Assembly: GCA_964016885.1 (NCBI GenBank)
Contig: OZ024744.1
Span: 50,220,001 to 50,284,000 of the forward strand
Length of the DNA stretch: 64,000 nt
Reading direction: 5' to 3'
Origin: Eledone cirrhosa
Lineage: Eukaryota
The notes beneath the pieces are model-generated. The model had not been told where the DNA came from. It ran no database searches and was given only the letters and a program-made list of their open reading frames with translations. Position numbers and translations under genes: made by a program. Below are positions 2,787-52,845 of the stretch, piece after piece; the stretch's first letter is position 1, and each line of letters opens with the position of its first letter.

Positions 2787-2945
2787 CTCAAACCGTTTTG
2801 ACGACTATTTCCAGAAATAGCCATCGAAACGGCTTGAGCTCTGCCGTCCGGGTCATACATTTTCCTAATACCCACTCTACTACCCTAAGTATTGAGTACT
2901 CTGGTGCATTATGGTCCATCTGGTTCCTTACCACAACTCCTTCGA
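2787..2945 (+). mobile_element. Probable PLE end remnant with small fold-back; related copy at 38694-38806
   Basis: Hairpin ctcaaaccgttttgacgactatttc/gaaatagccatcgaaacggcttgag. Tail actctactaccctaagt..gagtactctggtg recurs inverted at 38694-38747. Confidence 0.5.
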
Positions 2946-3263
2946 TATATATATATATATATATATATAAAAACAAATAACGAAACGAAATTAAATTTCG
3001 TTTCGTTTGTAACTCACTTTTGTATGACTGACGCTTAAACAATTAAGTTAAAAATGTACATCTACATATGTATACTGAAATACTAGTGTGTATATGAATA
3101 CACACACGTATACATATGTAGGTGTACCAAGTCTTTCACTGGTCGCTTTACAGTGAGCGGCCCAGCTATTCTGTAGGTAAACACACAGACAAACCGGTTT
3201 TTAGAGTCATACTGGTTTTCGGGGGGAACACCTTCCCTCCATTCTCCAGAAAGCCAGACAAGG

Positions 3264-3308
3264 AATATTGGACTAGTTTCGTTGTTGTTACAACTCATCA
3301 GCAATATT
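3264..3308 (-). ncRNA. Type I hammerhead ribozyme (canonical)
   Basis: Minus strand: AATATTG-CTGATGA-GTTGT AACA ACAAC-GAAA-CTAG-TC-CAATATT. Perfect 7-bp stem I, 5-bp stem II, palindromic stem III, GUC cleavage site. Confidence 0.92.
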
Positions 3309-3393
3309 TACCTATCTACCGGCCTTTCTGGAGAATTGTAAAAGCACATATCGTTATATGCTTTTTCTATGAAAATTAGTAGTGGGCAGACTA

Positions 3394-3401
3394 ATTTGCA
3401 T
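3394..3401 (-). promoter_or_regulatory. Octamer motif ATGCAAAT (possible snRNA-type distal element)
   Basis: Exact octamer on the HHR strand ~93 nt upstream of the core; positionally conserved in the related element at 28579-28586. Confidence 0.4.
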
Positions 3402-3479
3402 AGAGTGTGAGTACGCACCGGTTCAGCGGAGACGATAAAAACAAATAACGAAACGAAATTAAATTTCGTTTCGTTTGTA

Positions 3480-3511
<32 letters not shown>

Positions 3512-3517
3512 TATATT

Positions 3518-3605
<88 letters not shown>

Positions 3606-3611
3606 AATATA

Positions 3612-3643
<32 letters not shown>

Positions 3644-3739
3644 TACAAACGCTTAAACATATAAGGCTGAGTGTTTAGAAAATTAGATTCGCAATTTCGA
3701 TTTCCAGACCGGGTGATGCATTATATCCTTGAGCAAGAC

Positions 3740-4330
3740 ACTTATGAAAGATTACTAAATGAGGAGAATGCATGGGAAAAAGAGACCCTACCCCAAGTGG
3801 ACCCTATAGAAGGGCTAGCAGTACAAGTCAGTAACAGCATAGTAAGTAAGGTAATCAAAGATAGAAAGACAGGGAAGGCCACCGGTCCATCGGGTATAGC
3901 CGCCGAGATGCTGAAGGCATCTGGGTCAGTAGGTCTCATCATAACCACACGTATTGTTAACCAGGTAATACTAGAAGGTGTCATACCAAAAGATTGGTGC
4001 AGCAGCATCATTGTCAACTGCTACAAGGGTAAAGGTGATGCACTAGATAGAGGAAAGGTCATGAAAGTAACGGAAAGAGTTATAGCACAATTGATTAGGG
4101 ACCGGGTGAAACTAGATGAGATGCAATTTGGGTTTGTACCAGGAAAAGGCACCAATGATGACCTCTTCCTAGTCAAGCAGTTACAGAAAAAGTACCTAGC
4201 TAAAAGTAAGCTGCTCTCCCTGGCATTTGTGGGTCTGGAAAAAGCCTTCGACAGAGTTCCCTGTGCTATAATCTGGTGGGCTCTTAGAAAATTAGGAGTA
4301 CATGAATGGCTTGTGAAAGCTGTACAAGCC
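3740..4330 (+). mobile_element. RTE LINE RT fragment
   Basis: GKATGPSGI, YKGKGD, EMQFGF, LEKAFDRVP motifs. Confidence 0.9.
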
Positions 4331-4990
4331 AGTGAGCTTCAGCAATCTGAGGTCTACACTCACCACCTCTGCCCATATTTTCCGTGGTCTTCCTCGACTG
4401 CATCTTCCTTCAACTGGCATTTCCTGGCACTTCTTTACCTAGCGGTCATCCTCCATGTGCATCACATGTGCATACCAATGCAGTCTTCTCTCCCGCACAC
4501 TACAGCCAATCCCTTTATACACAGTTTCTCTCTCAACTCGTCTGTGCTTGGTCGTTCATGCACATTGACATTGCACATCCAATGGAGCATGCTTGCTTCA
4601 TTTCTCTCCAGTTGTCGCATATCCTCTGTAGTTGCTGCCCATGACTCTCTACCATGCAGCATCGTGCATCTCACATAGGCATCATATAACCAACCTTTCA
4701 TATGCAGAGAGAAACCTTTCTTTGTCAACAAAGGTAGCAGCTCCCTAAACTTCTTCCAACCTGTTCTTATTCTGGATACTATGGCCTTGTAGCACCCTCC
4801 TCCCTTACTAATCTGATCACCTAGGTATTGGAAACCATCAACCACCTCTATAGGTCCTACCCGCATTTGAAAAATGTGTCAATCACTACGACTTCTGTCA
4901 AATTTCCCGGTACATCTACTGCATATATAGTTTTCTCTATCTGTTAGCTTGCCTGCTATCCCACTACATCTCTTGTGTACCCAATGTATA
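4331..4990 (-). mobile_element. RTE LINE C-terminal fragment, inverted
   Basis: Minus ORF 4462-4866: FQYLGD..GWKKFRELLPLL..MLHGRESW. Confidence 0.85.
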
Positions 4991-5019
4991 TATAGGTATG
5001 TATATATATACATATGAGT

Positions 5020-7016
5020 AGACCCTATAGAGGGGCCAGCAGTACAAGTCAGCAGCAACGTAGTAAGTAAGGCAATCAAAGATATGAAGATGGGGAAGGC
5101 AACTGGTCCATCGGGTATAGCTGCCGAGATGCTGAAGGCATCTGGGTCTGTAGGTCACACTATAACCACACGTATTGTTAACCAGGTAATACTAGAAGGC
5201 GTCATACCAAAAGATTGGTGCAGTAGCATCATTGTCAACTGCTACAAAGGTAAAGGTGATGCACTCGATAGAGGAAACTATAGAGGTATTAAGCTGATGG
5301 ACCAGGTCATGAAAGTAACAGAAAGAGTTATAGCACAGTTGATTAAGGACCGGGTGAAACTAGATGAGATGCAATTTGGGTTTGTATCAGGAAGAGGCAC
5401 CACTGATGCCCTCTTCCTTGTGAGGCAGTTACAGGAAAAGTACCTAGCTAAAAGTAAGCCACTCTACCTGGCATTCGTCGATCTCGAGAAAGCCTTTGAC
5501 AGAGTTCCACGTGCTGTAATCTGGTGGACTCTTAGAAAACTAGGAGTAGATGAATGGCTTGTGAAAGCTGTACAAGCCATGTATAGGGGAGTAGTCAGCA
5601 AAGTTAGAATTAGCAATGAGTATAGCGAGGAATTTAGCGTACAGGTTGGGGTACACCAGGGCTCTGTTCTTAGCCCTCTCCTGTTCATCATAGTCCTACA
5701 GGCAATAACGGAGGAGTTTAAGACCGGATGCCCATGGGAACTCCTGTATGCTGATGACCTCGCACTTATAGCTGAATCTATGGTAGAACTAGAGAAGAAA
5801 TTCCAAACTTGGAAGTAGAGACTAGAAAGAAAGGGTCTCAAAGTCAACATGACAAAGACTAAGGTCCTTGTAAGTAGACGAGAAAACAGAATCGAGATGC
5901 CCTCAGGGAAATGGCCTTGCTCAGTATGTAGGAAAGGTGTAGATAGGAACTCCATTCTCTGCCCCAAATGCAAACAATGGGTACTCAAGAGATGTAGCGG
6001 GATCTCAGGAAGCTTAACTAAGAATGTAGGCTTCACATGCAGCAGCTGTACTGGGACAGCAAGCAGCAAACAGCCACAGGAAACAAGTACCGCCAATCTC
6101 TGGGAGGGCTCTGTAGAGACAGTAGACAGCTTCTGCTACCTAGGTGACCGAATTAGCAGCGGAGGTGGGTGTTCAGAAAGTAAAATAACTAGGGTAAGAA
6201 CGGGATTGAAGAAGTTTAGGGAACTACTACCACTGCTAGCTGCAAAAGGCTTCTCCCTCAGAATGAAAGGCAGACTGTATGATGCGTGTATCCGAACAGC
6301 AATGTTGCATGGTAGTGAGACCTGGGCGCTGAAGGTGGAAGACTTACGTAGATTAGAGAGAAACGAAGCCTGCATGCTCCGATGGATGTGTAATAGTAAT
6401 ATACGCGAACGGCAAAGCATAAATGAATTGAGAGAGAGACTGAGCATAAGAGGAATCAAATACTGTGTGCAGGAAAGGCAGTTGCGTTGGTATGGACATG
6501 TGATGCGTATGAAGGATGACAGCTGCATAAAAGGGTACAGAGCACTAGACGTCCATGGAAACCGCGGAGTGGGGAGACCCAAGAAGACCTGGGATGAGGT
6601 GATAAAAGCCGACCTTACCCAATTACACCTCTCAAAGGTGATGACACACGACTGTGACCTCTGGCATCACGTAGTAATACAGTGTACCCGACCTCCCATG
6701 GGTACAAGCTGAAGCATATAGACAAAATGCCCCACACCACCTACTGCAAGGTGGTCGTGGAGGTGCCACGGCAAAAAAGCACCCAGCCTACACTGTAAAG
6801 TGGACGTGTAGGCGCCACGAAAAAGCACCCAGCACTCACTGTAAATAAGGTTGGTGTTAGGAATGGCATCCAGCTGTAGAAATCAAGCCAAATCAGTTCC
6901 AGTATGAGCAAGGCATGGTCAGCTGACCAGACACTGCCCACAACAGGACAACCCGTCTAACCCATGCTAGCGTGGAAGAACGGACGTAAAACGGTGATGA
7001 CGATGATGATGATGAT
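5020..7016 (+). mobile_element. 5'-truncated RTE LINE (RT, C-terminus, 3' UTR, (GAT)n tail)
   Basis: ORFs 5084-5818 (GVHQGSVLSP, LLYADD) and 5849-6712 (Cys-rich insert, LRWYGHVMR, GRPKKTW) separated by one premature stop; ends in (GAT)n. Confidence 0.95.
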
Positions 7017-7045
7017 ACCTATATATATACATACATATATGTATG

Positions 7046-7078
<33 letters not shown>

Positions 7079-7311
7079 GTATGTATATATATATATATGT
7101 GTGTGTGTGTTTGTGCATCAGTATGTGCATACTTCTAAACTATGATTATTTCAAACAAATGAAACAGCTCTACGCCTGTAAAACTCATTTCACCATAAAT
7201 ATATATGAACCCTCATTACTAATGTATTGTGCTTCCCTTCCATTCTCCTTCTCAATAAAACTACTTTGTATTATATATACATATATATACATATATATAT
7301 AAATATATATA

Positions 7312-8548
7312 GATGACCTCACACTTATAGCTGAATCTATGGTAGAACTAGAAAAGAAATTCCAACCATGGAAGCAGGGACTAGAAAGAAGGGGTCTCAA
7401 AGTCAACCTGACAAAGACTAAGGTCCTTGTAAGTAGATGAGAAAACAGAACCCAGATCCCCTCAGGGAAATGGCCTTGCTCAGTATATAGGTAGGAAGGT
7501 GTAGGTAGGAACTCCATCCTCTGCCCCAAATGCAAACAATGGGTACATAAGAGATGTAACGGGATCTCAGGAAGCTTAACTAAGAATGTAGGCTTCACAT
7601 GTAGCAGCTGTGCTGGGACAGCAAGCAGCAAACAGCCACAGGAAACAAGCACCACCAAACTCTGGGAGGGCTCTGTAGAAACAGTAGACAGCTTCTGCTA
7701 CCTAAGTGACTGAATTAGCAGCGGAGGTGGGTGTTCGGAAAGTACAATAACTAGGGTAAGAATGGGATGGAAGAAGTTCAGGGAGCTACTGCCACTGCTA
7801 GCTGCAAAAGGCTTTTCTCTCAAAATGAAGGGCAGACTGTATGATGCATGTATACGAACAGCAATGTTGCATGGTAGTGAGACATGGGCTCTGTCTGTAG
7901 AAGACTTACGTAGATTAGAAAGAAATGAAGCTTGCATGCTCTGATGGATGTGTAATAGACGAACGGCAAAGCATAAACGAATTGAGAGAGAGACTGAGTA
8001 TAAGAGGAATCAAATGCTGTGTGCAGGAGAGGCGGTTGAGTTGGTATGGACATGTGATGCGTATGAAGGATGACAGCTGCATAAAAAGGTGCATAGCATA
8101 AGATGTCAATGGAAACCACGGAGTGGGGAGACCCAAGAAGACCTGGGATGAGGTGATAAAAGCCGACCTTACTCATTTACACCTCTTAAAGGCGACCGTG
8201 ACCTCTGGCGCCACGCAGTAATATAGAAGACCCGACCCCAATGGGTACAAGCCGAAGCCGAAACATATAGACAATATGCCCCCACACCCTCCCACTGCAA
8301 AGTGGTCATGGAGGTGCCACGGCAAAAAAGGACCCAGCCTACACTGTAAAGTGGACGTGTAGGTACCACGGAAAAAAGCACCCAGCACTCACTGTAAATG
8401 AGGTTGGTGTTAGGAAGGGCATCCAGCTGTAGAAATCAAGCTAGAATCAGTTCCTGTATGAGCAAGACAAGGTCAGCCGACCGGACACTGCCCACAACAG
8501 GACGACTCGTCTAACCCATGCTAGCGTGGAAGAACGGACGTAAAACGG

Positions 8549-8817: not shown

Positions 8818-9117
8818 ATACTTTGGGAGGGTCATGTTGCCAATAAGAAACACACGCACCAGTTGCTTTCACTTCAATTTATTATATATTTATAAATTTA
8901 CAAATTTATAAATTTATAAATTTCTGGTTGGTTGGTTGGTTCCACAACCAGATAGTTGTTTATATATAGTCATTGTCCTTTCGTCACACACTCTGTGACC
9001 TCTTCAGTGACTGGGGATTCCTTTCTTTGTTTCTGTGCCTCTCCTTTGTTCTGTCCTACGCCATTTGGTGCGTGTGTTTCTTATTGGCAACATGACCCTC
9101 CCAAAGTATAACAATAT
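8813..9117. mobile_element. PLE-like remnant: ~50-bp inverted repeats around a degenerate HHR
   Basis: 8813-8860 is the reverse complement of ~9067-9114. Minus 8968-9012: AGTCA-CTGAAGA-GGTCACA..TGTGAC-GAAA-GGAC-AA-TGACT (cleavage triplet lacks U). Confidence 0.55.
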
Positions 9118-9185: not shown

Positions 9186-12100
9186 TGTCCTGGGTATGAC
9201 ATTAAACTACATCCAGTGGCAAGGCTCCAGTTCGGCAGTTCAGGAGTTGTGGGAAATGTGGAGTTACCCCTTAGTTGTCATGACTCCCAGGTCTGCCCTG
9301 GCCCGGGGTGGTAGTACCTGTTAGGGCTCCATTTATGGGTTAAATAACTACCTTATTCGAGTGGCGCCGGTAAGGTATTGTCAGCCATTGAAAATAAATA
9401 TGGAGAGTCAATCTAACAGCACTAGGGTTAGAGCCCCTAATTACACTGTCAAGGAGCAGCCTGGTCGTTATGACTCAGAGAGGGCCAGTGGATGATGGAT
9501 CAGCTGTCTCTGAGACAAATATAAAGAATGCAGTTTTGTCCTGCAGAAGAGCCATCAAAATGGGCACTTTGAATGTAAGGACTATTCGGACGCTGGAGAA
9601 GAGAGAGGTGTTGGGACATCTGTTCGAGGAGAGTGGTATACAGATACTTGCGATCCAAGAACACAGGATTCTACACGATGAACACGTGAGGAGTGTCATG
9701 ATTGGGAAGAGGAGCCAGCTCATCACTACATCGGCAGTGAAGAACACAACAAATGCTGCAGTAGGAGCATTGGGTTTTGTGTTCAGTGCAAAAACCAATC
9801 TGTTGGTGAGGGAAATAATGCCTATCTCCCCGCGAGTGTTGAGGGTGACCTTCAATGGAAACCCAAGACTGACAGTCATCTCAGCCTATAGTCCAACCGA
9901 GGGGGACAGTGATGTGAGTGCAGAAGAGTTCCATGAGGAGGTGTGTAGAGCTGTCAACACCACTCAGGCACACAATCTCCTGCTTGTTTTGGGGGACTTC
10001 AATGCACATCTGAGTAAGGAGGGCAGTGAAGATCCTTGCTGGTACTTCCATAACAACACCAACCGAAATGGAAGAGTACTGAGAGACACCCTGCTGGAGG
10101 CGAACTTGATAGTGACCAATCTAGGGTTTAGGAAGAATCTGGGGAAGATGTGGACCTACATCTCAGATATGCACCTGTCCAAGTCCCAGATTGATTTCAT
10201 TCTGGTATGGAAAAAGTGGCGGAATAGTGTTCTGAACACAGAGCCATACAACTATTTCAGTACACTGGGTAGTGACCACCGGCTTGTTATGAGTGAGGTC
10301 CGGGTGAGCTTAAGAAAGAGCAAGGCTCAGCCCCGGAGAGCAATCTATGACTGGGGAGCTTTGAAGGAAGATGATAAGCTACAGGAGAGGTTCACAGTGG
10401 AAGTGAGGAACAGGTTCAGTGCTCTGTGTGGAGAGACAGAGGAGAGAGAGATTGAATGGACTGAGGAGAATATGACGAGGAGGTACGGGCACTTCACCAA
10501 TGCAGTGGCGGAAGCAAGTGAAACCCTGGTGCCGAGGAAAAAGAACAAAGGGAAGCACGTCAGCTCTGCACACACCAAGTGTGTGCAGCCAGAGAACACC
10601 TGAAAGCTGCCAGGGACCAATTCTATGCTGATCCTACGGAGGAGAGGATGGAGACTGTGGAGGTGATGAGGGAAGAGCTCTGTACCGCTTACACTGAGGT
10701 CAGAGAGGAGGCACTGATAGAGAAGATCAGAAGTGTGGAGAGAGCGGTTGACAGATTTGGGTGTAAGGAGAGCTGGATGATCATCAACGAGATCACAGGG
10801 AGGAAGAGAAGGTGTTCGAGTCAGATCCAGGGAACGGGGCCCGAGGATAGGAAGAGGAAATGGCTAGACCATTTTAGGACCCTACTAGGAGAGCCACCCC
10901 CCACAGGTGTCTCTCAGTACTCTTCCATTTCGGTTGGTGTTGTTATGGAAGTACCAGCAAGGATCTTCACTGCCCTCCTTACTCAGATGTGCATTGAAGT
11001 CCCCCAAAACAAGCAAGAGATTGTGTGCCAGAGCACTGGGGAGATCAGGCGGCTGTTTGAGGAACTGGATGTTGAGACAGAGCCCTTCACCAGAGAGGAG
11101 CTTCAGAGAGCCAAGAAGAGGATCAAGGAGGGCAAGGCTCATGGAGAAGATGGAGTGGCATCAGAGGTGATGAAGAGGTGTGATTTTGATGATATCATCC
11201 TGGGGTTCTGTAACGGGGCACTGGAGAAGGGAGTTGCCCCGAAGCAGTGGAGGATCAGTAACATCGTCCCAGTGCCAAAGAAGGGAGATCTCTCTAACAC
11301 CAACAACTACAGGGGGATCTCACTGACGTCACTTGTGGCAAAGACCCTCAACAGGATGATTCTTAACAGGATCCAGCCTGAGATGGAGAAGAAGCTCAGG
11401 GACAACCAGAACGGCTTCAGAGAGGGTAGATCAACCACCAGTCACATCCTGATGCTGAGTAGGATATTAGAGGGAGCTAGAGCAAAGTGCCTTCCTGCGG
11501 TCATGGTTTTCATTGACTTTAGGAAGGCCTTTGATTCTGTGGACCGTTACTGCCTGATGAAGATCTTACAGGCTTATGGAATCCCCAAGAAGCCAAGAAG
11601 ATAGTGGACCTGATATCACTGCTATACACCAACACCAAAGCCCAAGTCATTACACCTGATGGGATGACAGAGTTCTTTGAGATACTGGCTGGAGTGCTCC
11701 AGGGAGATACATTGGCTCCCTACCTTTTTATCATCGTAGTGGACTATTGTATGCGCCTTGCACTGGAGAAACACCAGGACTCTGGCTTTACTGTAGCACC
11801 GGCTCAGAGCAGGAGAGTTAGGGCGAAAAAGGTATCGGATGCTAAATTTGCCGACGACATAGTTTTAGTGACAAATACAGTGAAGGAGGCAGAGGATTTG
11901 ATGCGAGAGGTTGAGACTGTGTCGAAGAGTGTGGGGCTGAGAATGAATGAGACGAAAACAAAATATCTGGTAGAGAATGTTGAGAAGCCAGAGGGGATCA
12001 CTAATGTAGGCGGGAAGCCGCTAGAATTGGTTGAGGGCTTCCTGTATTTGGGAGCAAGGATTGGGAATACGGAAGATGATGTGGTTGAGAGGAAGAGCAA

Positions 12101-12605
12101 GGCCTGGGCGGCGTGCCACAGCTTGAGATCGGTGTGGAAGTCGGACCTTCGTAGAGACCTGAAAGTCCGCCTCTTCATTGCTGTAGTGGAGTCTGTGCTG
12201 CTGTATGGGTCTGAGACTTGGACACTGACCAAGAAACTCACTCAGATGGTGGATGGGTGCTACACGAGAATGCTGAGGATGGCTCTGAACATTAATCAGT
12301 ATACACTGAGGATGAAAAACTCAGAGCTGTATGGGAGCATCCCAAAAGTCAGCTCAAAAGTGACACAGAGGAGACTGAGGTTAGCTGGACATGCTCACCG
12401 ACATCCAGAGTTGACATTGCACTCAGTGCTCCTTTGGGAGCCCCTACATGGACACACTAGAAGAGGAAGACCAAGATTAACGTATGTTGATGCCCTAAGG
12501 ACAGACACTGGTCTGTTGGAGACGCAGGACGTGGCAGCGATAATGAGGGACAGAGACCGCTGGAGAGAACTCGTCCATGGATCTCGGGGATTTTACCCGC
12601 CTTAG
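9186..12605 (+). mobile_element. Near full-length RTE/RTE-X-type LINE (APE endonuclease plus RT), two frameshifts
   Basis: GTLNVRT, IQEHR, SAYSPT, GDFNA, SQIDFI, SDH in 9470-10603. NYRGISL, QNGFR, IDFRKAFD, GVLQGDTLAP, FADD in 10579-12605. An 8-bp ccaagaag duplication near 11590 shifts the frame. Confidence 0.93.
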
Positions 12606-12647
12606 ATATACATACATATATATACACATGGCCATATATGGCCATAC

Positions 12648-13060
12648 TCGGTGGGTAAGAAAGGAGTAGGCAGAAACTCCATTCTATGTCCCAAATGCAA
12701 ACTATGGTTCTGCCCAGATGGTTCTATACAAATAGTAGACACCCTCTGTTACCTGGGTGACAAAATCAGCAGTGGAGGAGGGTGCTCTGAAAGTGTAGTA
12801 GCCAGAGTTAGAACGGGATGGAAAAAGTTCAGAGAGCTAATACTGTTGTTGGCCACAAGGGGTTTTTCTCTAAAAATGAAAGGCAGATTGTATGATGCTT
12901 ATATACGAACAGCGATATTACATGGCAGTGAGACTTGGGCACTGTGTGTAGAGGACCTGCGTAGATTAGAAAGGAATTAAGCTTGCATGCTCTGATGGAT
13001 GTGTAATAGTAACGTGTGCGAAAGGTGTAGCATAAACGAATTAAGAGGGAGACTAAGCAT
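12648..13060 (+). mobile_element. RTE fragment
   Basis: CYLGDKISSGGGC..GWKKFREL..LHGSETW. Confidence 0.85.
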
Positions 13061-15184
13061 TTATGGTGCCCTCGACCCTTACACCCGAGGCCTCTTTTTT
13101 CGGCCAGCCTCATCGCTCTCAGGAAGAAAGAGGGTAGCATACGCCCATTGCTGTGGGCAATGTCTTCCGGAGGCTGGCTGCCATGGTGATCTGCAAGTCC
13201 GTCACACACGAACTGGGTAAGGAGTTTAGTCCGGTGCAACTCGGTGTCGGTGTGTCCAGTGGTTGTGAGGGAGCCTCTCATGCAATCAAGCAGTTCTTCA
13301 GCAGCTGCCCATCGGTACTGGCATCCAGGGACTCCAGGCATCTCATTGTCAAGCTTGACATGAGGAATGCCTTCAACTCTTTACGCCGGAATCATCTGCT
13401 GGAGGTCTGCCTCTGTCGAGCCCCCTCTGCCTACCCGCTGGCCTACCTGTCTTATGGATCCCCAAGCATGCTCCTAGTTGCTGATACGGTCATACCCTCG
13501 GCTACTGGGGTCCAACAGCGCGACCCTTTGGGACCCTTCCTGTTCGCCCTTGGTATTGACCACATCGCCCGGAGTATCACGGCCCCTCTCAACGTTTGGT
13601 ATCTGGATGATGCTACGTTGGGCGGACCCGTATGGACGGTCTGCCAAGACCTTCAATCGGTGATTCCTGCCCTGGCGGGAATCGGCCTCCAGGTCAACTC
13701 GGCCAAGTCGGAGGTGGTGAACGTCAGCCTTGATGCTGCGAGCTTTGCAGCCTCCGTCTTGCAGCGGCCCATTCTCCGCCAGGTTCAGGTGACCCCCAAA
13801 GAGGATGTCCTCATCCTCGGGTCACCGATCCAACCGCCGGCCATCCGCTCCACCATCAGGTCCAGGCTTCAACAGCTCCAGACTCTCACGAGCCAACTGG
13901 GCTTGATTGACGGCCACCCAGCTCTCTTTCTGCTGAGGAACTGCTTCGCCATGCCGAAGCTCCTCTATACACTCCGCAGCGCTCCATGCTACACCCAGAC
14001 ATCTCTCCTCGGTGACCTCGATACTTGTATCCGAGCAGAAGCCGAGGGGATATGCACCGTCAAGTTTGACGCCATACGGTGGCAACAAACCACTTTACCG
14101 GTCAGGTATGGCGGCCTAGGCCTCCGGTCCCCGATCTCACTAGCTTTGTCGGCGTATCTTTCGGTAACCTCGTGCCGCGTCCTCGTCAGCAGAGTTCTTC
14201 AAAACACAACAGAACTCTCTGTGTTCAGAGAACGTGAGGTCGCCTGTGAGACGTGGAACCGGCTGGGACTTAGCCCAGTAGACATCCCTCCTGCTTCTCC
14301 CCCAGTTGACGTCAAGTCTCCTCAACGCACTTGGGATGCCATCCAGTGCAGCCTGGCCTCAGACAGGCTCACGCACCAGCTCGACCAGCACCGCCTTGCT
14401 TGCTTTCGTGCGGCCTCCAAACCCCACAGTGGTGCTTGGCTCCATGCTCTGCTCTCCTTCTCCACTGGCACGCAGCTAGACAACCATAGCCTGCGAATCG
14501 GCGTTTCCCTGAGGCTCGGCCTCCGGATCTACCAGCCACACCAATGTCACTGCGGTTCCACCGTGGACTCTTTCGGCATCCACCCACTTTCCTGTCGCCA
14601 CAGTGCCGGCCGCATTCCACGCCATGCTGCCCTCAACGAGGTCATTAAGCATGGCTTGGACGCTGCAGGCTTCCCTTCCCAGCTCGAGCCGGTGGGACTG
14701 GATCGAAGGGACGGCAAAAGGCCAGATGGTATGACCATCTTCCCGTTCCGCGGTGGCAAACCCCTCGTCTGGGATGCCACTTGCACCGACACTTTCTGCA
14801 GTCGCAACCTGGTGCAGTCTTCGACTGACCCAGGTTCTGCTGCACGTCGGGCTGAGGAGGCCAAACTCCTCAAACACCGGTCGCTCTCCGACAGGTTTGC
14901 GGTCGTTCCCCTGGCAGTGGAAACTTCTGGTGTCCTTGGCCTCAGGGCTACCTCCTTACTCACCCCCATAGGCGCTGAGCTGGCTAGCCACAGGTGTGAG
15001 CCCCGCGAGTTGGAGTGGCTTTTCCAGCGCGTCTCCCTTGCCGTCCTCCGGGGAAACGCCTTCTCCGCCGGGGCTGTGGGTGGGCCCCATCGCGTACCAA
15101 TATATTAGTTAAATACCATTCTTTCATTTCATCCAACACAATAAAGTCAGTAAATAAAAAAATAAAAAATAAAAAAAATAAAAA
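13061..15184 (+). mobile_element. CRE-clade non-LTR retrotransposon, 5'-truncated (RT, Zn knuckle, restriction-like endonuclease)
   Basis: KKEGSIRPIAVGNVFRRL, KLDMRNAFN, GVQQRDPLGP, WYLDD, YGGLGLR, CHCG..H..SC..RH, RPDG..VWDAT. A-rich tail at ~15150-15184; GC-rich relative to the host. Confidence 0.85.
13153..15108 (+). CDS. RT-RLE polyprotein of the CRE-like element (N-terminally truncated)
   Basis: 651-aa uninterrupted frame with RT and PD-(D/E)xK-like motifs. Confidence 0.8.
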   Translation: MGNVFRRLAAMVICKSVTHELGKEFSPVQLGVGVSSGCEGASHAIKQFFSSCPSVLASRDSRHLIVKLDMRNAFNSLRRNHLLEVCLCRAPSAYPLAYLSYGSPSMLLVADTVIPSATGVQQRDPLGPFLFALGIDHIARSITAPLNVWYLDDATLGGPVWTVCQDLQSVIPALAGIGLQVNSAKSEVVNVSLDAASFAASVLQRPILRQVQVTPKEDVLILGSPIQPPAIRSTIRSRLQQLQTLTSQLGLIDGHPALFLLRNCFAMPKLLYTLRSAPCYTQTSLLGDLDTCIRAEAEGICTVKFDAIRWQQTTLPVRYGGLGLRSPISLALSAYLSVTSCRVLVSRVLQNTTELSVFREREVACETWNRLGLSPVDIPPASPPVDVKSPQRTWDAIQCSLASDRLTHQLDQHRLACFRAASKPHSGAWLHALLSFSTGTQLDNHSLRIGVSLRLGLRIYQPHQCHCGSTVDSFGIHPLSCRHSAGRIPRHAALNEVIKHGLDAAGFPSQLEPVGLDRRDGKRPDGMTIFPFRGGKPLVWDATCTDTFCSRNLVQSSTDPGSAARRAEEAKLLKHRSLSDRFAVVPLAVETSGVLGLRATSLLTPIGAELASHRCEPRELEWLFQRVSLAVLRGNAFSAGAVGGPHRVPIY

Positions 15185-17900: not shown

Positions 17901-17937
<37 letters not shown>

Positions 17938-18093
17938 TAATATACACGGGTGTGTATGATTGTGTATAGAAGATTATATTAATAAAAGGAATTCCAACTT
18001 TGTCTGATTTACTCGTTTTATTTACAATCCTTTAAAATTATAATGGTATTAGAATGAAACAGTATGGTAGAATATTAAATGTTAAGTGTTAAT

Positions 18094-18132
18094 TAAACAA
18101 GTACTTTCATGCTTTCGCAATCTTCAGGTTCA
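18094..18132 (-). ncRNA. Minimal type I hammerhead in pLTR
   Basis: TGAAC-CTGAAGA-TTGC GAAA GCAT-GAAA-GTAC-TT-GTTTA. Confidence 0.75.
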
Positions 18133-20160
18133 TATTCTGTGGTGACAGTCAAGTTTGCAATTTTCAATTGTAATGAGATGGGTAAATTTTGTGAAAAGCG
18201 GCTACAGGATGCTAAATTTTGCAAACTGTATTTCGATGATGAAACAGTCGTCAAGGTATCTCTTCCAAGATTTTTCAATGTACTTTCTAAAGTCAGTGCT
18301 ATATTTTTCCTCTATTTCTTGGTAGAGGTGTTGTTCTAAGTATCCCATTACAGAGTTCGCGTAAACAAACTTCGTTCCCATCGCTGTGCCTCTAATTTGG
18401 ATGTAATTCTTTCCATTGAAGAAGAAAGTCTTGTTTTCCAGAATAAGTTTGACTGCGTCTAGTATAAATGGCGCTGTGAATCTGGTGGGAATCACTTCTC
18501 TATGTTTTTCCACCCAGTACTTAACCGCCTTTATTTCTAAATCATGTGTAATGTTGGTGTAAAGGCTTACCACATCAAAACTAAGTTGAAGTGAATTCGT
18601 TTCCGTGGTTTTGGGAAGATGGGACAGGAAATCGATATCATCCCGGATGAAACTGGGTATGTGAATACATAGTGGTTTCAAAATAATGTCAACAAAATTG
18701 CTTAGACGGTGGGTGGGGTATGTTGGACCAGCTATAATAGGTCTAAGTTTTAAGTCTTTTGGGTGTAGTAATTTAATGTACTCACTGTTTTGTTCTTTTA
18801 CTGCCAGCTGTATTTCTTTTGACTTATAAACTTTCAGTAGGCCATACAGGTTGCTGGGTTTCGGCTCAAAATTGGTGATGTAGTCTCTTTCCTTATCAGT
18901 AAGTGATTGTGGTATTTTGAAGCCAGGTTGTTGATCTTCTTCATGATGTTGTGGTCTATATTTGACGGTATTTCATGGTAGAATGTTGTGTCTTTCAGTT
19001 GTTCCTCAACTAAATCTTTGTAGTATTCAGCATCCATTATAACAACTGCACCCCCTTTATCTGCTTGTTTAATTATTATTGTTTTATAATTTTGTATACG
19101 TTTAAGTGCAGACATTTTTGATTTGTTAATGTTTGGCCTAACATTAGTATTACGTCTAAGAGGAAATTTAGACAGGATGCCAATGTATTGGTCGAGATAG
19201 ATATTTCTTCCTTTTGGCGGAGTGAAATTTGATTTATTCTTTACTAGTGATTCATCACTCTCATTACTTTTATCAGCGAAGAATTCTACAAGTCGTAATT
19301 TTCGACAGAATTCTTGGGTATCCTCCTTCAGTTCTTGCTGGTTGACTGTTGGAGTCGGTGTGAATTTCACTCCTTTGACAGAATTTGCATTTCATCATTG
19401 TCAAGATCTCTTTTGGATAAATTAATTATTTTAGGATCTACGTGTACAGTTGTTTTGGGTATGTTTCCTCCTGGAGTTTTTTCTTTTTCCGGTTTTTGTT
19501 GTCCTGACGTTAAAAAATGGATTTTTCTCTGTTCAGGATTTATATTCCTGTTGGTGTTTGCTTCATGAACTTTTGGTCGTGATATTATATTTGGTTTCGT
19601 TATGTTTTTTGTCCTATATTTGGTATTATGTATATTATTTTTCCATTTCTTCTTAGCATTATTTTTAACAATCTGGGGAAATGACCTAGGTTTGCTTTCA
19701 GGTTTAGATCGTTTTTTCACCCAGTTTCTTGTGGGTAATCTCTGTTGAGATCTTGAGAATGATCTCCTGGTTTTTCTACTTCTCATGGTCTGGTCAAAGG
19801 GGGTAATACTCCTACTATGACTATGACAACGACCATGTCATGTAGACTACCACCACTAACAACAACAACAATAATAATAATAAAAGTGATGTTGATGGTG
19901 ATGATTAATAGAAAATGCTATTTTCATCATTTCTAAAAATAGCAAAACAAGTGATGTTTTGGACAGGGTCAAACAGTAGTCGTTAGACATGCTCAACCAA
20001 CCGTGATGCCTAAACCAATCAGCTTTAGTAATCCAGTGAAACTACACACAGATTGGTCGAAATACAGTTTGCAAAATTGAGCATCCTGTGGCCGCTTTTC
20101 ACAAAATTTACCCATCTCATTACAGTTTAAAATTGCAAACTTGACTGTCACCACAGAATA

Positions 20161-20199
20161 TGAACCTGAAGATTGCGAAAGCATGAAAGTACTTGTTCA
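20161..20199 (+). ncRNA. Minimal type I hammerhead in inverted pLTR
   Basis: TGAAC-CTGAAGA-TTGC GAAA GCAT-GAAA-GTAC-TT-GTTCA. Confidence 0.8.
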
Positions 20200-20343
20200 A
20201 TTAACAATTAACACTTAACATTTAATATTCTACCATACTATTTCATTCTAATACCATTATACATTTTAAAGGATTGTAAATAAAACGAGTAAATCAGACA
20301 AAGTTAGAATTCCTTTTATTAATATATATATATATATATACTA

Positions 20344-26512: not shown

Positions 26513-26533
26513 ATATATATATATATATATATA

Positions 26534-26907
26534 TAGAAAGGATGAATATAAAATGAAAGTGCTTTTTTTAAAAAAAGGAATTTATTAGGTATTGACATAT
26601 GTTTCTGTAACAGACTGAATACCTATGTATCGCTGCTTGCGTAATCATATAATGTTAGCAAGTATTCGATAGCAAATGTATAATCAGTTGTCACTTCTTC
26701 AGAGATTTTGGATAAATTGGATAATTTATCCAAAATTTCAGAAGAAGTGACAACTGATTATACATTTGCTATCGAATACTTGCTAACATTATATGATTAC
26801 GCAAGCAGCGATACATAGGTATTCAGTCTGTTACAGAAACATATGTCAATACCTAATAAATTCCTTTTTTAAAAAAAAGCACTTTCATTTTATATTCATC
26901 CTTTCTA
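26534..26907. repeat. ~374-bp near-perfect palindrome containing an HHR-like motif with a very long stem II
   Basis: Arms mirror around ~26720. C(T/A)GAAGA-AGTGACAACTGA..TCAGTCTGTTACA-GAAA-CATATG-TC. Confidence 0.8.
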
Positions 26908-27009
26908 CATTTTCTCCGGAATATAATTTATACTCGTTGAGCAAACCTGCACGTACGGTGTTCATCTCTAACGTAACGATATATTATCACTACATTATTG
27001 ATAACCTGA

Positions 27010-28102: not shown

Positions 28103-28196
<94 letters not shown>

Positions 28197-28404
28197 AGTA
28201 TGTACACGTACATACATATATGTATACAGACGTACAGTAGTATGTATATATATATATACATACATGCACTCATATATATATATGTACGTATGGATTCACC
28301 GAACATTTATTATAATGCTCGGTGTGTTTGTAAACAAACATCCCGTATTAAGCCGTAGTGTCCAGCAACCATCGTTGCTCGTTTGTTCAACACTGACAAA
28401 GGAA

Positions 28405-28445
28405 CGCTGTACTAGTTTCAAGTTTATTAGCTATCGTCAGCAACG
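28405..28445 (-). ncRNA. Type I hammerhead (inverted arm)
   Basis: CGTTG-CTGACGA-TAGCT AATA AACTT-GAAA-CTAG-TA-CAGCG. Confidence 0.78.
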
Positions 28446-28652
28446 AATACTTTCCTGCCAGATTGTTGAACGTATATACTTACCTAGTAACAGCCGTACT
28501 AAGAGTGCGAAATGAAATTTCGTTTCATTTTTTTCCGTTTATCGTTTTCTGTGCACCCGGCCGATTAACCCACTCGATATGCAAATTGGGCTACTCAGCC
28601 GTTAATATGCATTAGGTAAGTATATACGTTCAACAATCTGGCAGGAAGGTAT

Positions 28653-28695
28653 ACGTTGCTGACGATAGCTAATAAGCTTGAAACTAGTACAGCGT
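28653..28695 (+). ncRNA. Type I hammerhead ribozyme
   Basis: ACGTTG-CTGACGA-TAGCT AATA AGCTT-GAAA-CTAG-TA-CAGCGT. Confidence 0.87.
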
Positions 28696-28960
28696 TCCTT
28701 TGTCAGTGTTGAACAAACGAGCAACGATGGTTGCTAGACACTACGGCTTAATACGGGATGTTTGTTTACAAACACACCGAGCATTATAATAAATGTTCGG
28801 TGAATCCATACGTACATATATATATGTGTGTGCATGTATGTATATATATATATACATACTACTGTACGTCTGTATACATATATGTATGTACGTGTACATA
28901 CTTATATTTAAGTAACAGCCGTACTAAGAGTGGGAAATGAAATTTCGTTTCATTTTTTCC

Positions 28961-29044
<84 letters not shown>

Positions 29045-29809: not shown

Positions 29810-30854
29810 TATAAAACATGGGTAAATACTTGGAAAGTCTCATCAAGAAAAGCAAAAAAAATATAGACAAATGAATTAGAATATGAAATATATAAAAATC
29901 TTTCAAGAAATATAGTTAGGTGTGTGTATATGTATGTATATACGCTCACAGATGTGCATATATGTGAATGAACATATGTATACGTATAGTGAAAAAGTGT
30001 GCGTAAATATATAATTTAGGGCAAATGTATCTGTGTATCTGTAATCTACAGACAGAATAGATACATCATAAGAATATGAAGGCGCGCGCATAAACACACT
30101 TACACACACGTACACTTATATGCGGAAGTAAAAGAGGTAAGGGAGTGTAATAATTAAAGGAAAGTATCAATCTCGATATATTTATAAAAATGGAACAATA
30201 ATTTAGAAAGAAAAAATTAAAGAAAAGAAGACAAACAAGGTACACGCATACACACACACGTATATCTCACAAAAGAAACGCAAAAATAGACATGCTTATA
30301 TACACACGCACACTTACACATCCATACGTTCGATACGTACACACACACACAACACACACATACTTACACTCACGCATATTGACCTGTTTGCATGCACACG
30401 CATAAAAAAAGAGGATGTAAAAAAAGGGGGAGAAGAAAAAAGAAACAGAACATAAAACCTAGATGTAAAAACACGGATATAAAGACACATACACATACAC
30501 ATACACATACATATATATATATATATACACACACGCGCGCGCACATACGTAGGCGCTCATGTACATATATAGAAAGTATACACACATTAAGGCGTTCAGA
30601 CACATAGATACAGGGTGTAAAAAACTTGTGGATAAGTAAGTGCAAATATAAAATTACAAATATAAAATTGTAAGATTGGCTGCGCAAAAATAAAGAATAA
30701 AAATAAAAATAAAAAATATCTGGGGTGGAAAATGCAAGTGACTAGTCTAATCAGTTAGTGAAGCAAATAGGGAAGTAAAAAATGGAAAGTGAAGATATTA
30801 AGTGAATCGGAGAATAAAGGGTGGGGGGTTATTGGTGGATGTGAAGTAAAAATA

Positions 30855-31377
30855 AAAAATATATAAAAATAAAAATAAAAATAAAAATAAAAATAAAAAT
30901 AAAAATAAAAATAAAAATAAAAATAAAAATAAAAATAAAAATAAAAATAAAAATAAAAATAAAAATAAAAAAATTAAAAATAAAAATAAAAATAAAAATA
31001 AAAATAAAAATAAAAATAAAAATAAAAATAAAAATAAAAATAAAAATAAAAATAAAAATAAAAATAAAAATAAAAATAAAAATAAAAATAAAAATAAAAA
31101 TAAAAATAAAAATAAAAATAAAAATAAAAATAAAAATAAAAATAAAAATAAAAATAAAAATAAAAATAAAAATAAAAAAAATAAAAATAAAAATAAAAAT
31201 AAAAATAAAAATAAAAATAAAAATAAAAATAAAAATAAAAATAAAAATAAAAATAAAAATAAAAATAAAAATAAAAATAAAAATAAAAATAAAAATAAAA
31301 ATAAAAATAAAAATAAAAATAAAAATAAAAATAAAAATAAAAATAAAAATAAAAATAAAAATAAAAATAAAAATAAA
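30855..31377. repeat. (TAAAA)n pentanucleotide array, ~100 units
   Basis: Direct inspection. Confidence 0.97.
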
Positions 31378-31446
31378 TGAAATTAATAATAAGGATAAAA
31401 ATGAAAGTAAATCAGAAAGGGTAATTATAAAGAGAATAATAAGAGT

Positions 31447-40970: not shown

Positions 40971-41140
40971 TTGAGCACAGCCAGTTAGTATCTTATCTTT
41001 TCTTCACCGATAACAATGTATTTCATGTCTGAAATTATTGACTCAACCGTAACGAGTTAACACTATGTAGATCTATTTTATTTCCTATTGTATAAATAAT
41101 ATTACAAATAAAAAAAATAAAAAAAAACAAGGGGTAGCAC

Positions 41141-41610
41141 ACAGATCTAGGACCACATACAACACATAAGCAGGTAATACACACATATAGGACCACATAC
41201 AACACATAAGCTGGTAATACACACATATAGGACTACATACAATATATAAGCAGGTAATACACACATCTAGGACCACATACAACACATAAGCAGGTAATAC
41301 ACACATCTAGGACAACATGCAACACATAAGGAGGTAATATACACATCTAGGACCACATACAACACACGGGCAGGTAATACAAACATTTAGGACCACATTC
41401 AACACATAAGCAGGTAATACAAACATCTAGGACCACATACATCACATAATCAGGTAATACATACATCTAGGACCACATACAACACACAAGCAGGTAATAC
41501 ATACAGTTGGGACCACATGCAATACATAAGCAGGTAATATATACATCTTGAACTACCTACAACACACAGGCAGGTAATACATACATCTAGGACTAAATAC
41601 AACACACATT
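41141..41610. repeat. 40-bp minisatellite, ~11.7 copies
   Basis: Unit acacatctaggaccacatacaacacataagcaggtaatac. Confidence 0.95.
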
Positions 41611-48520: not shown

Positions 48521-51500
48521 CAATACAAAACCTGTCAGTCTACCATACAATATCTGTCAGTCTACCATACAATATCTGTCAGTCTACCATACTATATCTG
48601 TCAGTCTACCATACAATATCTGTCAGTCTACCATACTATACTGTCAGTCTACCACACAATACCTGTCAGTCTACCATACAATATCTGTCAGTCTACCATA
48701 CAATATCTGTCAGTCTACCATACTATACCTCTCAGTCTACCATAAATCTATCTGTCAGTCTACCATACTATACTGTCAGTCTACCATACAATATCTGTCA
48801 ATCTACCATACAATATCTGTCAGTCTACCATACTATACTGTCAGTCTACCATACAATACCTGTCAGTTTACCATACAATATCTGTCAGTCTACCATACTA
48901 TACTGTCAGTCTACCATACCATATCTGTCAGTCTACCATACTATACCTGTCAGTCTACCATACTATATCTGTCAGTCTACCATACTATATCGGTCAGTCT
49001 ACCATACTATACCTGTCAGTCTACCATACTATATCTGTCAGTCTACCATATTATATCTGTCAGTCTACCATTCAATATCTGTCAGTCTACCATACAATAT
49101 CTGTCAGTCTACTATACAATAAATGTCAATATACCATACAATATCTGTCAGTCTACCATACTATACTGTCAGTCTACCATACTATATCTGTCAGTCTACC
49201 ATACTATATCTGTCAATCTACCATACAATATATGTCAGTCTACCATGCTATACCTGTCAGTCTACAATACAATATCTGTCAGTCTACCATACAATATCTG
49301 TCAGTGTACCATACAATATATGTCAGTCTACCATACTATATCTGTCAGTCTACCATACAATATCTGTCAGTCTACCATACAATATCTGTCAGTCTACCAT
49401 ACAATATCTGTCAATCTACCATACAATATCTGTCAGTGTACCATACAATATCTGTCAGTCTACCATACTATATCGGTCAGTCTACCATACTATACCTGTC
49501 AGTCTACCATACTATATCTGTCAGTCTACCATATTATATCTGTCAGTCTACCATTCAATATCTGTCAGTCTACCATACAATATCTGTCAGTCTACTATAC
49601 AATAAATGTCAATATACCATACAATATCTGTCAGTCTACCATACTATACTGTCAGTCTACCATACTATATCTGTCAGTCTACCATACTATATCTGTCAAT
49701 CTACCATACAATATATGTCAGTCTACCATGCTATACCTGTCAGTCTACAATACAATATCTGTCAGTCTACCATACAATATCTGTCAGTGTACCATACAAT
49801 ATATGTCAGTCTACCATACTATATCTGTCAGTCTACCATACAATATCTGTCAGTCTACCATACAATATCTGTCAGTCTACCATACAATATCTGTCAATCT
49901 ACCATACAATATCTGTCAATCTACCATACAATATCTGTCAGTCTACCATACAATATCTGTCAGTCTACCATACAATATCTGTCAGTCTACCATACTATAT
50001 CTGTCAGTCTACCATATTATATCTGTCAGTCTACCCTACTATACGGTCAATCTACCATACTATATCTGTCAGTCTACCATACAATACCTGTCAGTCTACC
50101 ATACTATATCTGTCAGTCTACCATACTATACTGTCAGTCTACCATACTATATCTGTCAGTCTACCATACTATATCTGTCAGTCTACCATACAATAACTAT
50201 CAGTCTACCATACAATATCTGTCAGTGTACCATACAATATATGTCAGTCTACCATACAATATCTGTCAATCTACCATACAATATCTGTCAGTCTACCATA
50301 CAATATCTGTCAGTCTACCATACAATATCTGTCAGTCTACCATACTATATCTGTCAGTCTACCATACTATATCTGTCAGTCTACCCTACTATACTGTCAA
50401 TCTACCATACTATATCTGTCAGTCTACCATACTATATCTGTCAGTCTACCATACAATACCTGTCAGTCTACCATACTATATCTGTCAGTCTACCATACTA
50501 TACCTGTCAGTCTACCATACTATATCTGTCAGTCTACCATACTATATCTGTCAGTCTACCATACAATAACTATCAGTCTACCATACTATATCTGTCAGTC
50601 TACCATACTATATCTGTCAGTCTACCATACAATACCTTTCAGTCTACCATACTATATCTGTCAGTCTACCATACAATACCTGTCAGTCTACCATACAATA
50701 CTGTCAGTCTATCATACAATACCTGTCAGTCTACCATACTATATCTCTCAGTTTACCATACTATATCTGTCAGTCTACCATACTATACCTGTCAGTCTAC
50801 CATACTATACTGTCAATCTACCATACTATATCTGTCAGTCTACCATACAATTTCTGTCAGTCTACCATACAATATCTGTCAGTCTACCATACAATACCTG
50901 TTAGTCTACCATACAATACCTGTTAGTCTACCATACAATACCTGTTAGTCTACCATACAATACCTGTCAGTCCACCATACAATACCCGTCAGTCTACCAT
51001 ACTATACCTGTCAGTCTACCATATAATATCTGTCAGTCTACCATACAATATCTGTCAGTCTACCATACTATATCTGTCAGTCTACCATACTTTATCGGTC
51101 AGTCTACCATACTATATCTGTCAGTCTACAATACTATATCTGTCAGTCTACCATACAATACCTGTCAGTATACCATACTTTACCTGTCAGTCTACCATAC
51201 TATACTGGCAGTCTACCATACTATATCTGTCAGTCTACCATACTATACCTGTCAGTCTACCATACTATATCTGTCAGTCTACCATACAATACCATTCAGT
51301 CTACCATACTATATCGGTCAGTCTACCATACTATATCGGTCAGTCTACCATACTATATCTGTCAGTCTACCATACTATATATGTCAGTCTACCATACAAT
51401 ACCTGTCAGTCTACCATACTATATCTGTCAGTCTACCATACAATACCTGTCCCTCTACCATACTATATCTGTCAGTCTACCATACAATACCTGTCAGTCT

Positions 51501-52845
51501 ACCATACTATATCTGTCAGTCTACCATACTATATCTGTCAGTCTACCATACTATACCTGTCAGTCTACCATACTATATCTGTCAGTCTACCATACAATAC
51601 CTGTCAGTCTACCATACAATACCTGTTAGTCTACCATACAATACCTGTCAGTCTACCATACAATACCTGTTAGTCTACCATACAATACCTGTCAGTCTAC
51701 CATACAATACCTGTCAATCTACCTTACTGTATCTGTCAGTCTACCATACAATACCTGTCAGTCTACCATACTATACCTGTTAGTCTACCATACTATACCT
51801 GTTAGTCTACCATACAATACCTCTCAGTCTACCATACAATACCTGTCAATCTACCTTACTGTATCTGTCAGTCTACCATACAATACCTGTTAGTCTACCA
51901 TACTATACCTGTTAGTCTACCATACAATACCTGTCAGTCTACCATACAATACCTGTCCGTCGACCATACAATACCTGTCAGTCTACCATACTATATCTGT
52001 CAGTCTACCATACTATATCTGTCAGTCTACCATACAATACCTGTTAGTCTACCATACAATATCTGTCAGTCTACCATACAATACCTGTCAGTCTACCATA
52101 CAATACCTGTCAGTCTACCATACTATACTGTCAGTCTACCATACAATACCTGTCAGTCTACCATACAATACCTGTCAGTCTACCATACAATACCTGTCAG
52201 TCCACCATACTATACTGTCAGTCTACCATACAATACCTGTTAGTCTACCATACAATACCTGTCAGTCTACCATACAATACCTGTCAGTCTACCATACAAT
52301 ACCTGTCAGTCTACCATACAATACCTGTCAGTCTACCATACTATACTGTCAGTCTACCATACAATACCTGTCAGTCTACCATACTATATCTGTCAGTCTA
52401 CCATACAATACCTGTCAGTCTACCATACTATACTGTCAGTCTACCATACAATACCTGTCAGTCTACCATACTATATCTGTCAGTCTACCATACTATATCT
52501 GTCTGTCTACCATACAATACCTGTCAGTCCACCATACTATACTGTCAGTCTACCATACAATACCTGTTAGTCTACCATACAATACCTGTCAGTCTACCAT
52601 ACAATACCTGTCAGTCTACCATACAATACCTGTCAGTCTACCATACTATATCTGTCAGTCTACCATACTATATCTGTCTGTCTACCATACAATATTTGTC
52701 AGTCTACCATACAATACCTGTCAGTCTACCATACTATACTGTCAGTGTACCATACAATACCTGTCCGTCTACCATACAATACCTGTCCATCTACCATACA
52801 ATACCTGTCCATCTACCATACAATACCTGTCCATCTACCATACAA
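48521..52845. repeat. 22-bp tandem satellite (~195 units), intronic
   Basis: Unit ctgtcagtctaccatac(a/t)ata(t/c) with 21-bp variants. Confidence 0.97.

Follow-up and report, generated by a model that had tools for sequence, protein, structure and literature searches.

An abundant 468-nt hammerhead repeat with the insertion anatomy of Penelope-like elements and a possible circular RNA template

The window, by which we mean the whole 64,000-nt stretch of DNA analysed here, contains a short hammerhead repeat, family A, placed between two tracts of alternating T and A. The features of this copy, in window coordinates, are the following.

2945..2969, no strand: (TA)n target, left side, after the 3' end of an unrelated short repeat
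2967..2969, minus: outer fixed end P1, with 2-3 nt of microhomology to (TA)n; putative start of reverse transcription
2967..3434, minus: full 468-nt monomer of family A; the RNA sense is the minus strand
2980..3006, no strand: 13-bp hairpin in the P1-P2 tail, repeated at 3448-3474
3036..3042, minus: inner fixed end P2, monomer 69-76; an end in other copies, internal in the window copy
3248..3319, minus: type I hammerhead, core 3301-3295, predicted cut 3271/3270 (GUC)
3353..3360, minus: weak TATA-like element, 42 nt after the U6-like motif
3368..3379, plus: imperfect inverted copy of the U6-like motif, able to pair with it as an RNA hairpin
3391..3402, minus: motif matching the proximal (-77) element of the host U6, U6atac and MRP genes, with an octamer inside (3394-3401)
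3435..3480, minus: 5'-truncated second unit of 46 bp, which stops just past the hairpin
3481..3642, no strand: (AT)n target, right side

The layout described in the first-pass annotation was found in full: a non-coding unit within (TA)n whose first 46 bp return at an offset of 468 (2967-3012 = 3435-3480, the longest exact match at offsets of 300-699), a hairpin inside the redundant part, and an octamer upstream of the core, at 3401-3394 and 92 nt before it. The longest stop-free frame in a dimer of the monomer is 85 amino acids. The copy has the P1 end, one unit and 46 more bases, and an inverted arm is absent. The 3' end of the unrelated repeat lies within 12 of the 61 family-A loci examined, the window's own counted. 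With a single hammerhead the window copy can probably not release a monomer and is likely a dead end, because its stem III is weak and of the dimer type. On its own it is probably ordinary and inert.

The ribozyme had been described as type I, on the minus strand, with a GUC site and a palindromic stem III, and all of this agrees with our analysis. The core CUGAUGA at 3301-3295 is followed by GAAA, the triplet is GUC, and cleavage is predicted between 3271 and 3270. Seven base pairs form stem I and five form stem II, and stem III consists of A-U and the palindromic CUAG. The core, stems I and II and the GUC are intact, but the word perfect, which had also been used, is overstated in view of the weak, dimer-type stem III; ribozymes with a weak palindromic stem III of this kind cleave efficiently only as dimers (PMC4209133, PMC7229834). 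The proposed check with the Rfam hammerhead models gave an HH9 match on the minus strand at 3248-3319 (41 bits, E 5.3e-7 for the whole window), though below the gathering score of 52 bits. Rfam microRNA matches, all below their gathering scores, were discarded as TA-repeat noise. The ribozyme region (101 nt) folds with a z of -4.1, none of 200 shuffles being equally stable, and the circular monomer with a z of -8.7; the opposite strand is no less stably folded (z -12.6), so that folding cannot tell the strand. Among 14 sequences, stems I and II have two-sided changes at 6 pairs and 90% of the cells pair, in a set of chosen, related members of families A, B and C; the shuffle counts are not probabilities. 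GUC is the minority state, seen in 1,688 of the 7,777 family-A cores, the others listed read GUU, and about 78% of the cores are without GUC. A GUU triplet is cleaved more slowly than GUC.

The genome that holds the window is 3.0 Gb in size. Genome-wide, 7,777 exact family-A hammerhead cores were counted, and a looser pattern gave 38,759 cores for the clan of families A, B and C; the reversed-pattern control was 0 in both cases. The exact junction of (TA)n to the first base of the unit (TA-P1) occurs 2,316 times, with a control of 0, and a DNA search gave at least 143 matches at 91-100% identity among the 40 of 764 candidates scored. Sister family B is also 468 nt, with 61% identity to A, family C is about 424 nt, the sisters are about 60% identical, and a similar hairpin is present in both B and C. 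The units are short and non-coding, occur both in tandem and dispersed, and each carries a type I hammerhead. The many genomic copies and tandem arrays that had been expected are thus both there, and a single-copy unit is ruled out. The window itself holds a family C copy at 28189-28966, with an inverted arm from P2, a main arm that ends at P1, cores at 28659 (+) and 28440 (-), and the U6-like motif at 28578. Family A is also present at 85-99% in organism A and two other organisms (four contig sets), and on one contig of organism C the unit's end is followed by its start, as in a tandem. No description of the clan was found in the literature searched, and the word ribozyme is absent from the main text of an octopus repeat-annotation paper.

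We compared 61 distinct family-A insertions. Forty of them are best hits, a choice that favours long and similar copies; the other 21 are the first with an exact core along contig C1, taken in genome order, and form an unbiased set. Of these 21 insertions, 19 end at P1 (monomer position 1-2), and P2 (69-76) is an end in 16 according to the script and in 17 according to the alignment, the difference being L211, which the alignment ends at 76. Both sites are used in 14 or 15 of the insertions and at least one in all 21, with a P1-P2 spacing of about 70 nt; families B and C have the two fixed ends too. On the RNA-3' side the ends are thereby confined to two fixed sites, and variation is limited to the 5' side. 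Different permutation points had been expected, and this was not borne out; random permutation was rejected, since all 21 insertions end at P1 or P2. Likewise, the 46-bp overlap is no mark of a random start on a circle but a partial tandem of the PLE (Penelope-like element) type with a 5'-truncated second unit, because it is the 5' end alone that varies. The targets are mostly (TA)n; an ATG and an ATT repeat account for one case each, and a target-site duplication is unreadable inside (TA)n.

An inverted arm was observed by alignment in 43 of the 61 insertions. Arm ends fall at 41-46 in 9 of 104 cases (six insertions) as compared to 1.3 expected, a count inflated by the best-hit bias and by the palindrome, and the hairpin is therefore likely to be a stop or fold-back site. 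The inversion junctions lie within 10 nt in 5 of 43 cases (1.9 expected) and within 35 nt in 13 of 43 (6.5 expected); fold-back and twin priming may both occur, or both would fit. Partial tandems, inverted 5' copies, a tail and a bias to (TA)n are known from PLE insertions (PMC8557442), and a PLE protein cuts both strands of AT-rich DNA and starts at two internal RNA sites, which define the PLE tail (PMC11167929). The two fixed 3' ends, the 5' truncation, the inverted arm and the microsatellite target can be read as the two-site tail footprint of a PLE. The tail length does not agree with the 30-40 bp of PLEs, being 69-76 nt in family A and 59-62 nt in B and C.

Candidate partners for such a mobilisation are at hand. 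A broken Neptune-type PLE lies in the window at about 17935-20300, with an RT fragment, inverted ends and a minimal hammerhead at 20166 (+) and 18127 (-), and its family has many intact copies elsewhere. The intact PLE forms 4.2-kb tandem units with their own minimal hammerhead and (TA)n ends, and its 775-codon frame contains an RT, a CxxxxCxxC linker of the Neptune/Nematis type and a GIY-YIG domain; this frame is unbroken in at least 51 of the 148 PLE matches scored. Upstream in the intact unit, and overlapping the RT frame, lies another frame of about 476 codons (L133:2406-6067, L131, L134, L135), with no Pfam match over the cut-off. PLEs usually have one ORF. A GIY-YIG search revealed four or five more PLE families. 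In the five or six families sampled, neither the unit as a pLTR nor its hammerhead was found, and ten PLE 3' regions showed low-complexity similarity only to the whole units. A tblastn search with the intact PLE protein against the 61 family-A loci, with flanks of about 0.5-1.5 kb, gave one decayed fragment, on the opposite strand. Within these short flanks the 61 insertions are without LTR bounds and without an RT ORF, and an RT + GIY-YIG ORF between repeats was not observed. The first-pass annotation had held that copies consistently attached to an RT ORF would make the unit an ordinary pLTR, and such attachment was not seen, 1 of 61 being near a PLE fragment on the opposite strand.

Direct contacts between the unit and PLE sequences are few. 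In L051 the unit abuts the 3' end of a Neptune-type element with no TA in between, a single case that an insertion accompanied by a deletion could also explain, and in L196 there is a unit junction with a decayed GIY-YIG fragment. A weak resemblance links the P1 ends of families B and C to the inner end of another PLE family (2 and 6 of 300 shuffles, among 24 tests), the best match being that of C to L181, with 2 of 300 shuffles. The PLE tails seen here, measured by eye at single loci, are 37-39 nt, shorter than the 59-75 nt of the clan. It was also possible to observe short elements composed only of a Neptune 3' end and an inverted arm folded at a hairpin (L051:3518-3765, L052:145-640, L198:839-1329), and the one at L051:3518-3765 is fused directly to a retrozyme array.

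The octamer belongs to a larger motif that is found in host genes. An octamer-containing 13-mer at -77 to -79, together with a TATA at -30, is shared by three distinct U6 genes, the best of the U6atac genes and the only RNase MRP gene (L213, L214, L215, L239, L247). A matrix of these five genes, which in a leave-one-out comparison gives them 12-19 bits, scores 16 bits in A, 20 in B and 16 in C (0, 0 and 1 of 300 shuffles), and the 64-kb window has only two sites of at least 15 bits, both in clan members. The upstream regions comprised 17 U6 loci taken as distinct and 8 U6atac loci, with the element at -77 in three and one of them; the remaining loci, which have the look of retrocopies, did not enter the matrix, and 9 additional array copies were not counted a second time. 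The promoterless U6 and U6atac copies start right after TA-rich or (TA)n tracts (L226, L229, L230, L240, L241) and resemble retrocopies placed in the same targets as the unit. The clan units have the proximal element and lack a TATA at the host spacing of 47-49 nt. Their TATA-like element comes 42-43 nt after the motif, with 4-8 bits as compared to 11-12 in the host genes, and this spacing, 5-6 nt closer than in the host, would put the start just before stem I.

A U1-type promoter, of the Pol II snRNA class, was rejected, since the U1 motifs are absent from the units: neither the proximal nor the distal motif of host U1 has a significant match in A, B or C, the latter being the distal motif that U1 has in common with two U6 genes. 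The U1 genes themselves have a different proximal motif and their distal motif near -255, and an exact octamer occurs in 1 of 10 U1 upstream regions, at -399. The proposal of an octamer promoter like that of the newt stands in so far as the octamer lies in a motif of the snRNA class, but this motif matches the U6 type (Pol III class) and not U1. There are runs of at least five T inside the unit, and such runs would end most Pol III transcripts; full units are nevertheless copied, so read-through or the use of Pol II would be needed. From the sequence, the chances that the motif is active as a promoter seem about evenly balanced. At first the octamer was read as a mere hairpin arm, and this was changed by the elements of the U6, U6atac and MRP genes. 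The motif may also form a hairpin with its inverted copy; 90% of the cells pair, and no pair has two-sided changes.

The arrays are very uniform. Units of the same array differ by 0.46% and units of different arrays by 4.7% in the unbiased set (10 arrays); the figures for the best-hit set (24 arrays) are 0.79% and 3.2%. One 9.3-kb insertion (L209+L210) consists of 20 units, 7 one way and 13 the other, between P2 and P1, a product that rolling-circle reverse transcription would fit. Three variants are common to all 20 units and absent from the other 60 insertions, the 20 units together have one private change, and the 13-unit arm is without any private variant. Private variants common to both arms were found in L007, L017, L029, L207, L208, L209x and L212. 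The cleavage site is crossed by 201 units with only 2 one-base deletions nearby and no added sequence, and arm ends fall at 299-309, the cut site, in 2 of 104 cases as compared to 2.4 expected. The template was therefore continuous there, whether as a circle closed by ligation or as a multimer left uncleaved. An alternative with template jumps from one cleaved linear monomer to the next was rejected, with no added bases and no pile-up at the cut site. Several other arrays are mixed, with variants in alternating or adjacent units: L069 alternates 355A and 151C, L052 also has variants in some units only, and a 32-unit, 14.6-kb array bounded by P2 and P1 (G000:C1:5738094-5752747; L138, L139) has periodic variant blocks with period-7-like patterns. 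Variants carried by some units only imply multimer templates or later duplication or conversion, and not one monomer circle. As for the claim that the window copy is a cDNA of a circular RNA, the arrays are homogeneous enough to fit circle copying, but random permutation points are not supported.

The window copy belongs to an abundant 468-nt hammerhead repeat, which, as seems reasonably probable to us, was inserted by the RT and endonuclease of a Neptune-type PLE and copied from circular monomer RNA. A less probable explanation, to be taken seriously all the same, keeps the same element and the same machinery, with a linear, largely uncleaved multimer as the template and the circles as by-products. 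In vitro, uncleaved RNA was the main PLE substrate and hammerhead mutants inserted normally (PMC11167929), and the alternating and periodic variants of some arrays and the prevalence of GUU cores with a weak stem III point the same way. Against this, the donors must be as long and as uniform as the products, including an arm like that of 13 units without a private variant, and linear copying only shortens arrays, which implies that the long ones need another source. Covariation also keeps the hammerhead fold across families only about 60% alike. From these sequence patterns a circle is favoured as the template over an uncleaved multimer, though not decisively, because it would give long uniform arrays without a long uniform donor.

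The two remaining explanations move the origin of the arrays or of the unit itself. A satellite model of local unequal crossing-over was proposed in the Discussion of 10.64898/2026.07.22.740005, and the block duplications in the 32-unit array suit it. Applied here it would have the arrays grow locally from solo pLTR-like insertions, with only short pieces retrotransposed, which we find improbable in view of the private variants common to both arms of seven inverted arrays, the exact P1 and P2 ends kept by long arrays, and the at least 2,316 dispersed P1 junctions; such growth could explain later enlargement, not the family. That the unit is an ordinary pLTR of an autonomous PLE, mostly seen as solo or truncated copies, is very improbable. 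The insertion anatomy is indeed like that of PLEs, and only five or six PLE families were sampled, but the single decayed fragment at the 61 loci, the joining of tandem units without a coding spacer, and the low-complexity similarity to PLE 3' regions all speak against it.

Copying from a circle with PLE enzymes would imply the following cycle. Transcription of a tandem copy would be driven by the internal U6-like motif that lies a little before the hammerhead, provided the motif is active, and two hammerheads acting as a dimer would cut out a monomer, which, as in known retrozymes, would be ligated to a circle. The PLE protein would then nick (TA)n, and the cDNA would start at P1, P2 or both, the ends observed in the insertions, and synthesis would then cover anything between a fraction of one turn of the circle and 13 turns or more. 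The inverted arm that is seen in the arrays may arise when two cDNAs become joined head to head, or through a fold-back. For the window copy this would mean a start at P1, 1.1 turns and a stop at the hairpin. A further-reaching reading, which we offer as tentative, is that the clan is not derived from a pLTR but is a group of independent circular RNA parasites, with a captured U6-class promoter element of the host, a mimic of the two-site Neptune start signal in the form of a longer tail that contains a hairpin, and inverted arrays of up to 9-15 kb each laid down in a single event. If this is true, the insertions would preserve, directly in the genome, the traces of rolling-circle reverse transcription by a telomerase-like RT.

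Judged from its sequence, the family appears to work like the metazoan non-LTR retrozymes of coral, mussel and axolotl, which also have non-coding tandem units, a canonical type I hammerhead, a GC content below 50%, strong self-pairing, thousands of copies and co-resident PLEs (PMC7229834). The unit is 468 nt as compared to 150-450 bp, and the 38,759 clan cores compare to about 5,000-6,000 in mussel and coral and 126,247 in axolotl (PMC7229834). Two fixed ends and inverted arms are seen here and are not part of the description given in the sections of PMC7229834 compared; circles were demonstrated there and are proposed for the clan. The family would be inserted like EN+ PLEs of the Neptune and Nematis groups, with which it shares partial tandems, 5' truncation, an inverted 5' arm, a tail at one end, the (TA)n target and a palindromic stem III (PMC8557442, PMC11167929, PMC3846280). 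It departs from them in having no ORF, a tail of 59-75 instead of 30-40 nt and a canonical instead of a minimal hammerhead, and pLTR homology is absent in the PLE sample.

The non-autonomous PLE derivatives (Li, Clavereau, Pollet 2026, 10.64898/2026.07.22.740005; MRC1, PMC8557442) are similar in that Neptune-type PLEs co-occur and the copies stand head to tail. The link to PLEs was drawn there from pLTR homology, here from junction anatomy, and the arrays were put down to local amplification, whereas ours look made at insertion. Newt satellite 2 and Schistosoma Sm-alpha have an internal promoter upstream of the hammerhead, as the candidate here does, so that only tandem copies propagate (PMC6765202, PMC2220036). 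The promoter of satellite 2 is of the snRNA type and used by Pol II, whereas the motif here matches U6-class and not U1 genes of the host; that of Sm-alpha is a Pol III promoter of a SINE-like unit, and here it is the upstream element of U6-class genes that is matched. A link between retrozymes and PLEs was proposed earlier (PMC7229834) and argued from homology (10.64898/2026.07.22.740005). The two-site junction anatomy, arrays made at insertion and a U6-class motif are absent from the parts of these two papers that were compared. Which enzyme moves animal retrozymes, and whether the circle is the template, are posed as open questions in both. A single genome here provides exact start sites at P1 and P2, arrays that are young and uniform, and candidate PLE proteins in intact form, which brings both questions within reach of the published in vitro assay for PLEs. 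The family points, moreover, to a proximal promoter element that U6-class genes use in this animal and that a mobile RNA appears to have reused.

The rest of the window is rich in repeats. Further CUGANGA...GAAA motifs were observed at 9007 (-), 17184 (+)/17099 (-), 26414 (+), 27427 (-), 27877 (+)/27742 (-) and 34141 (+)/34027 (-), several of them in inverted pairs, and judging by the motifs these are likely to be other hammerhead-bearing PLE derivatives. Broken frames of LINE-type RT and endonuclease lie at 3671-8200 and 9398-15108. There is also a hexamer A-rich array at 30847-31411, a 40-bp minisatellite at 41139-41606 and a 22-bp satellite of about 197 copies at 48523-52845. Long, near-perfect inverted repeats of the fold-back kind typical of PLE insertions are found beside or near (TA)n at 26531-26910 and 9963-11033.
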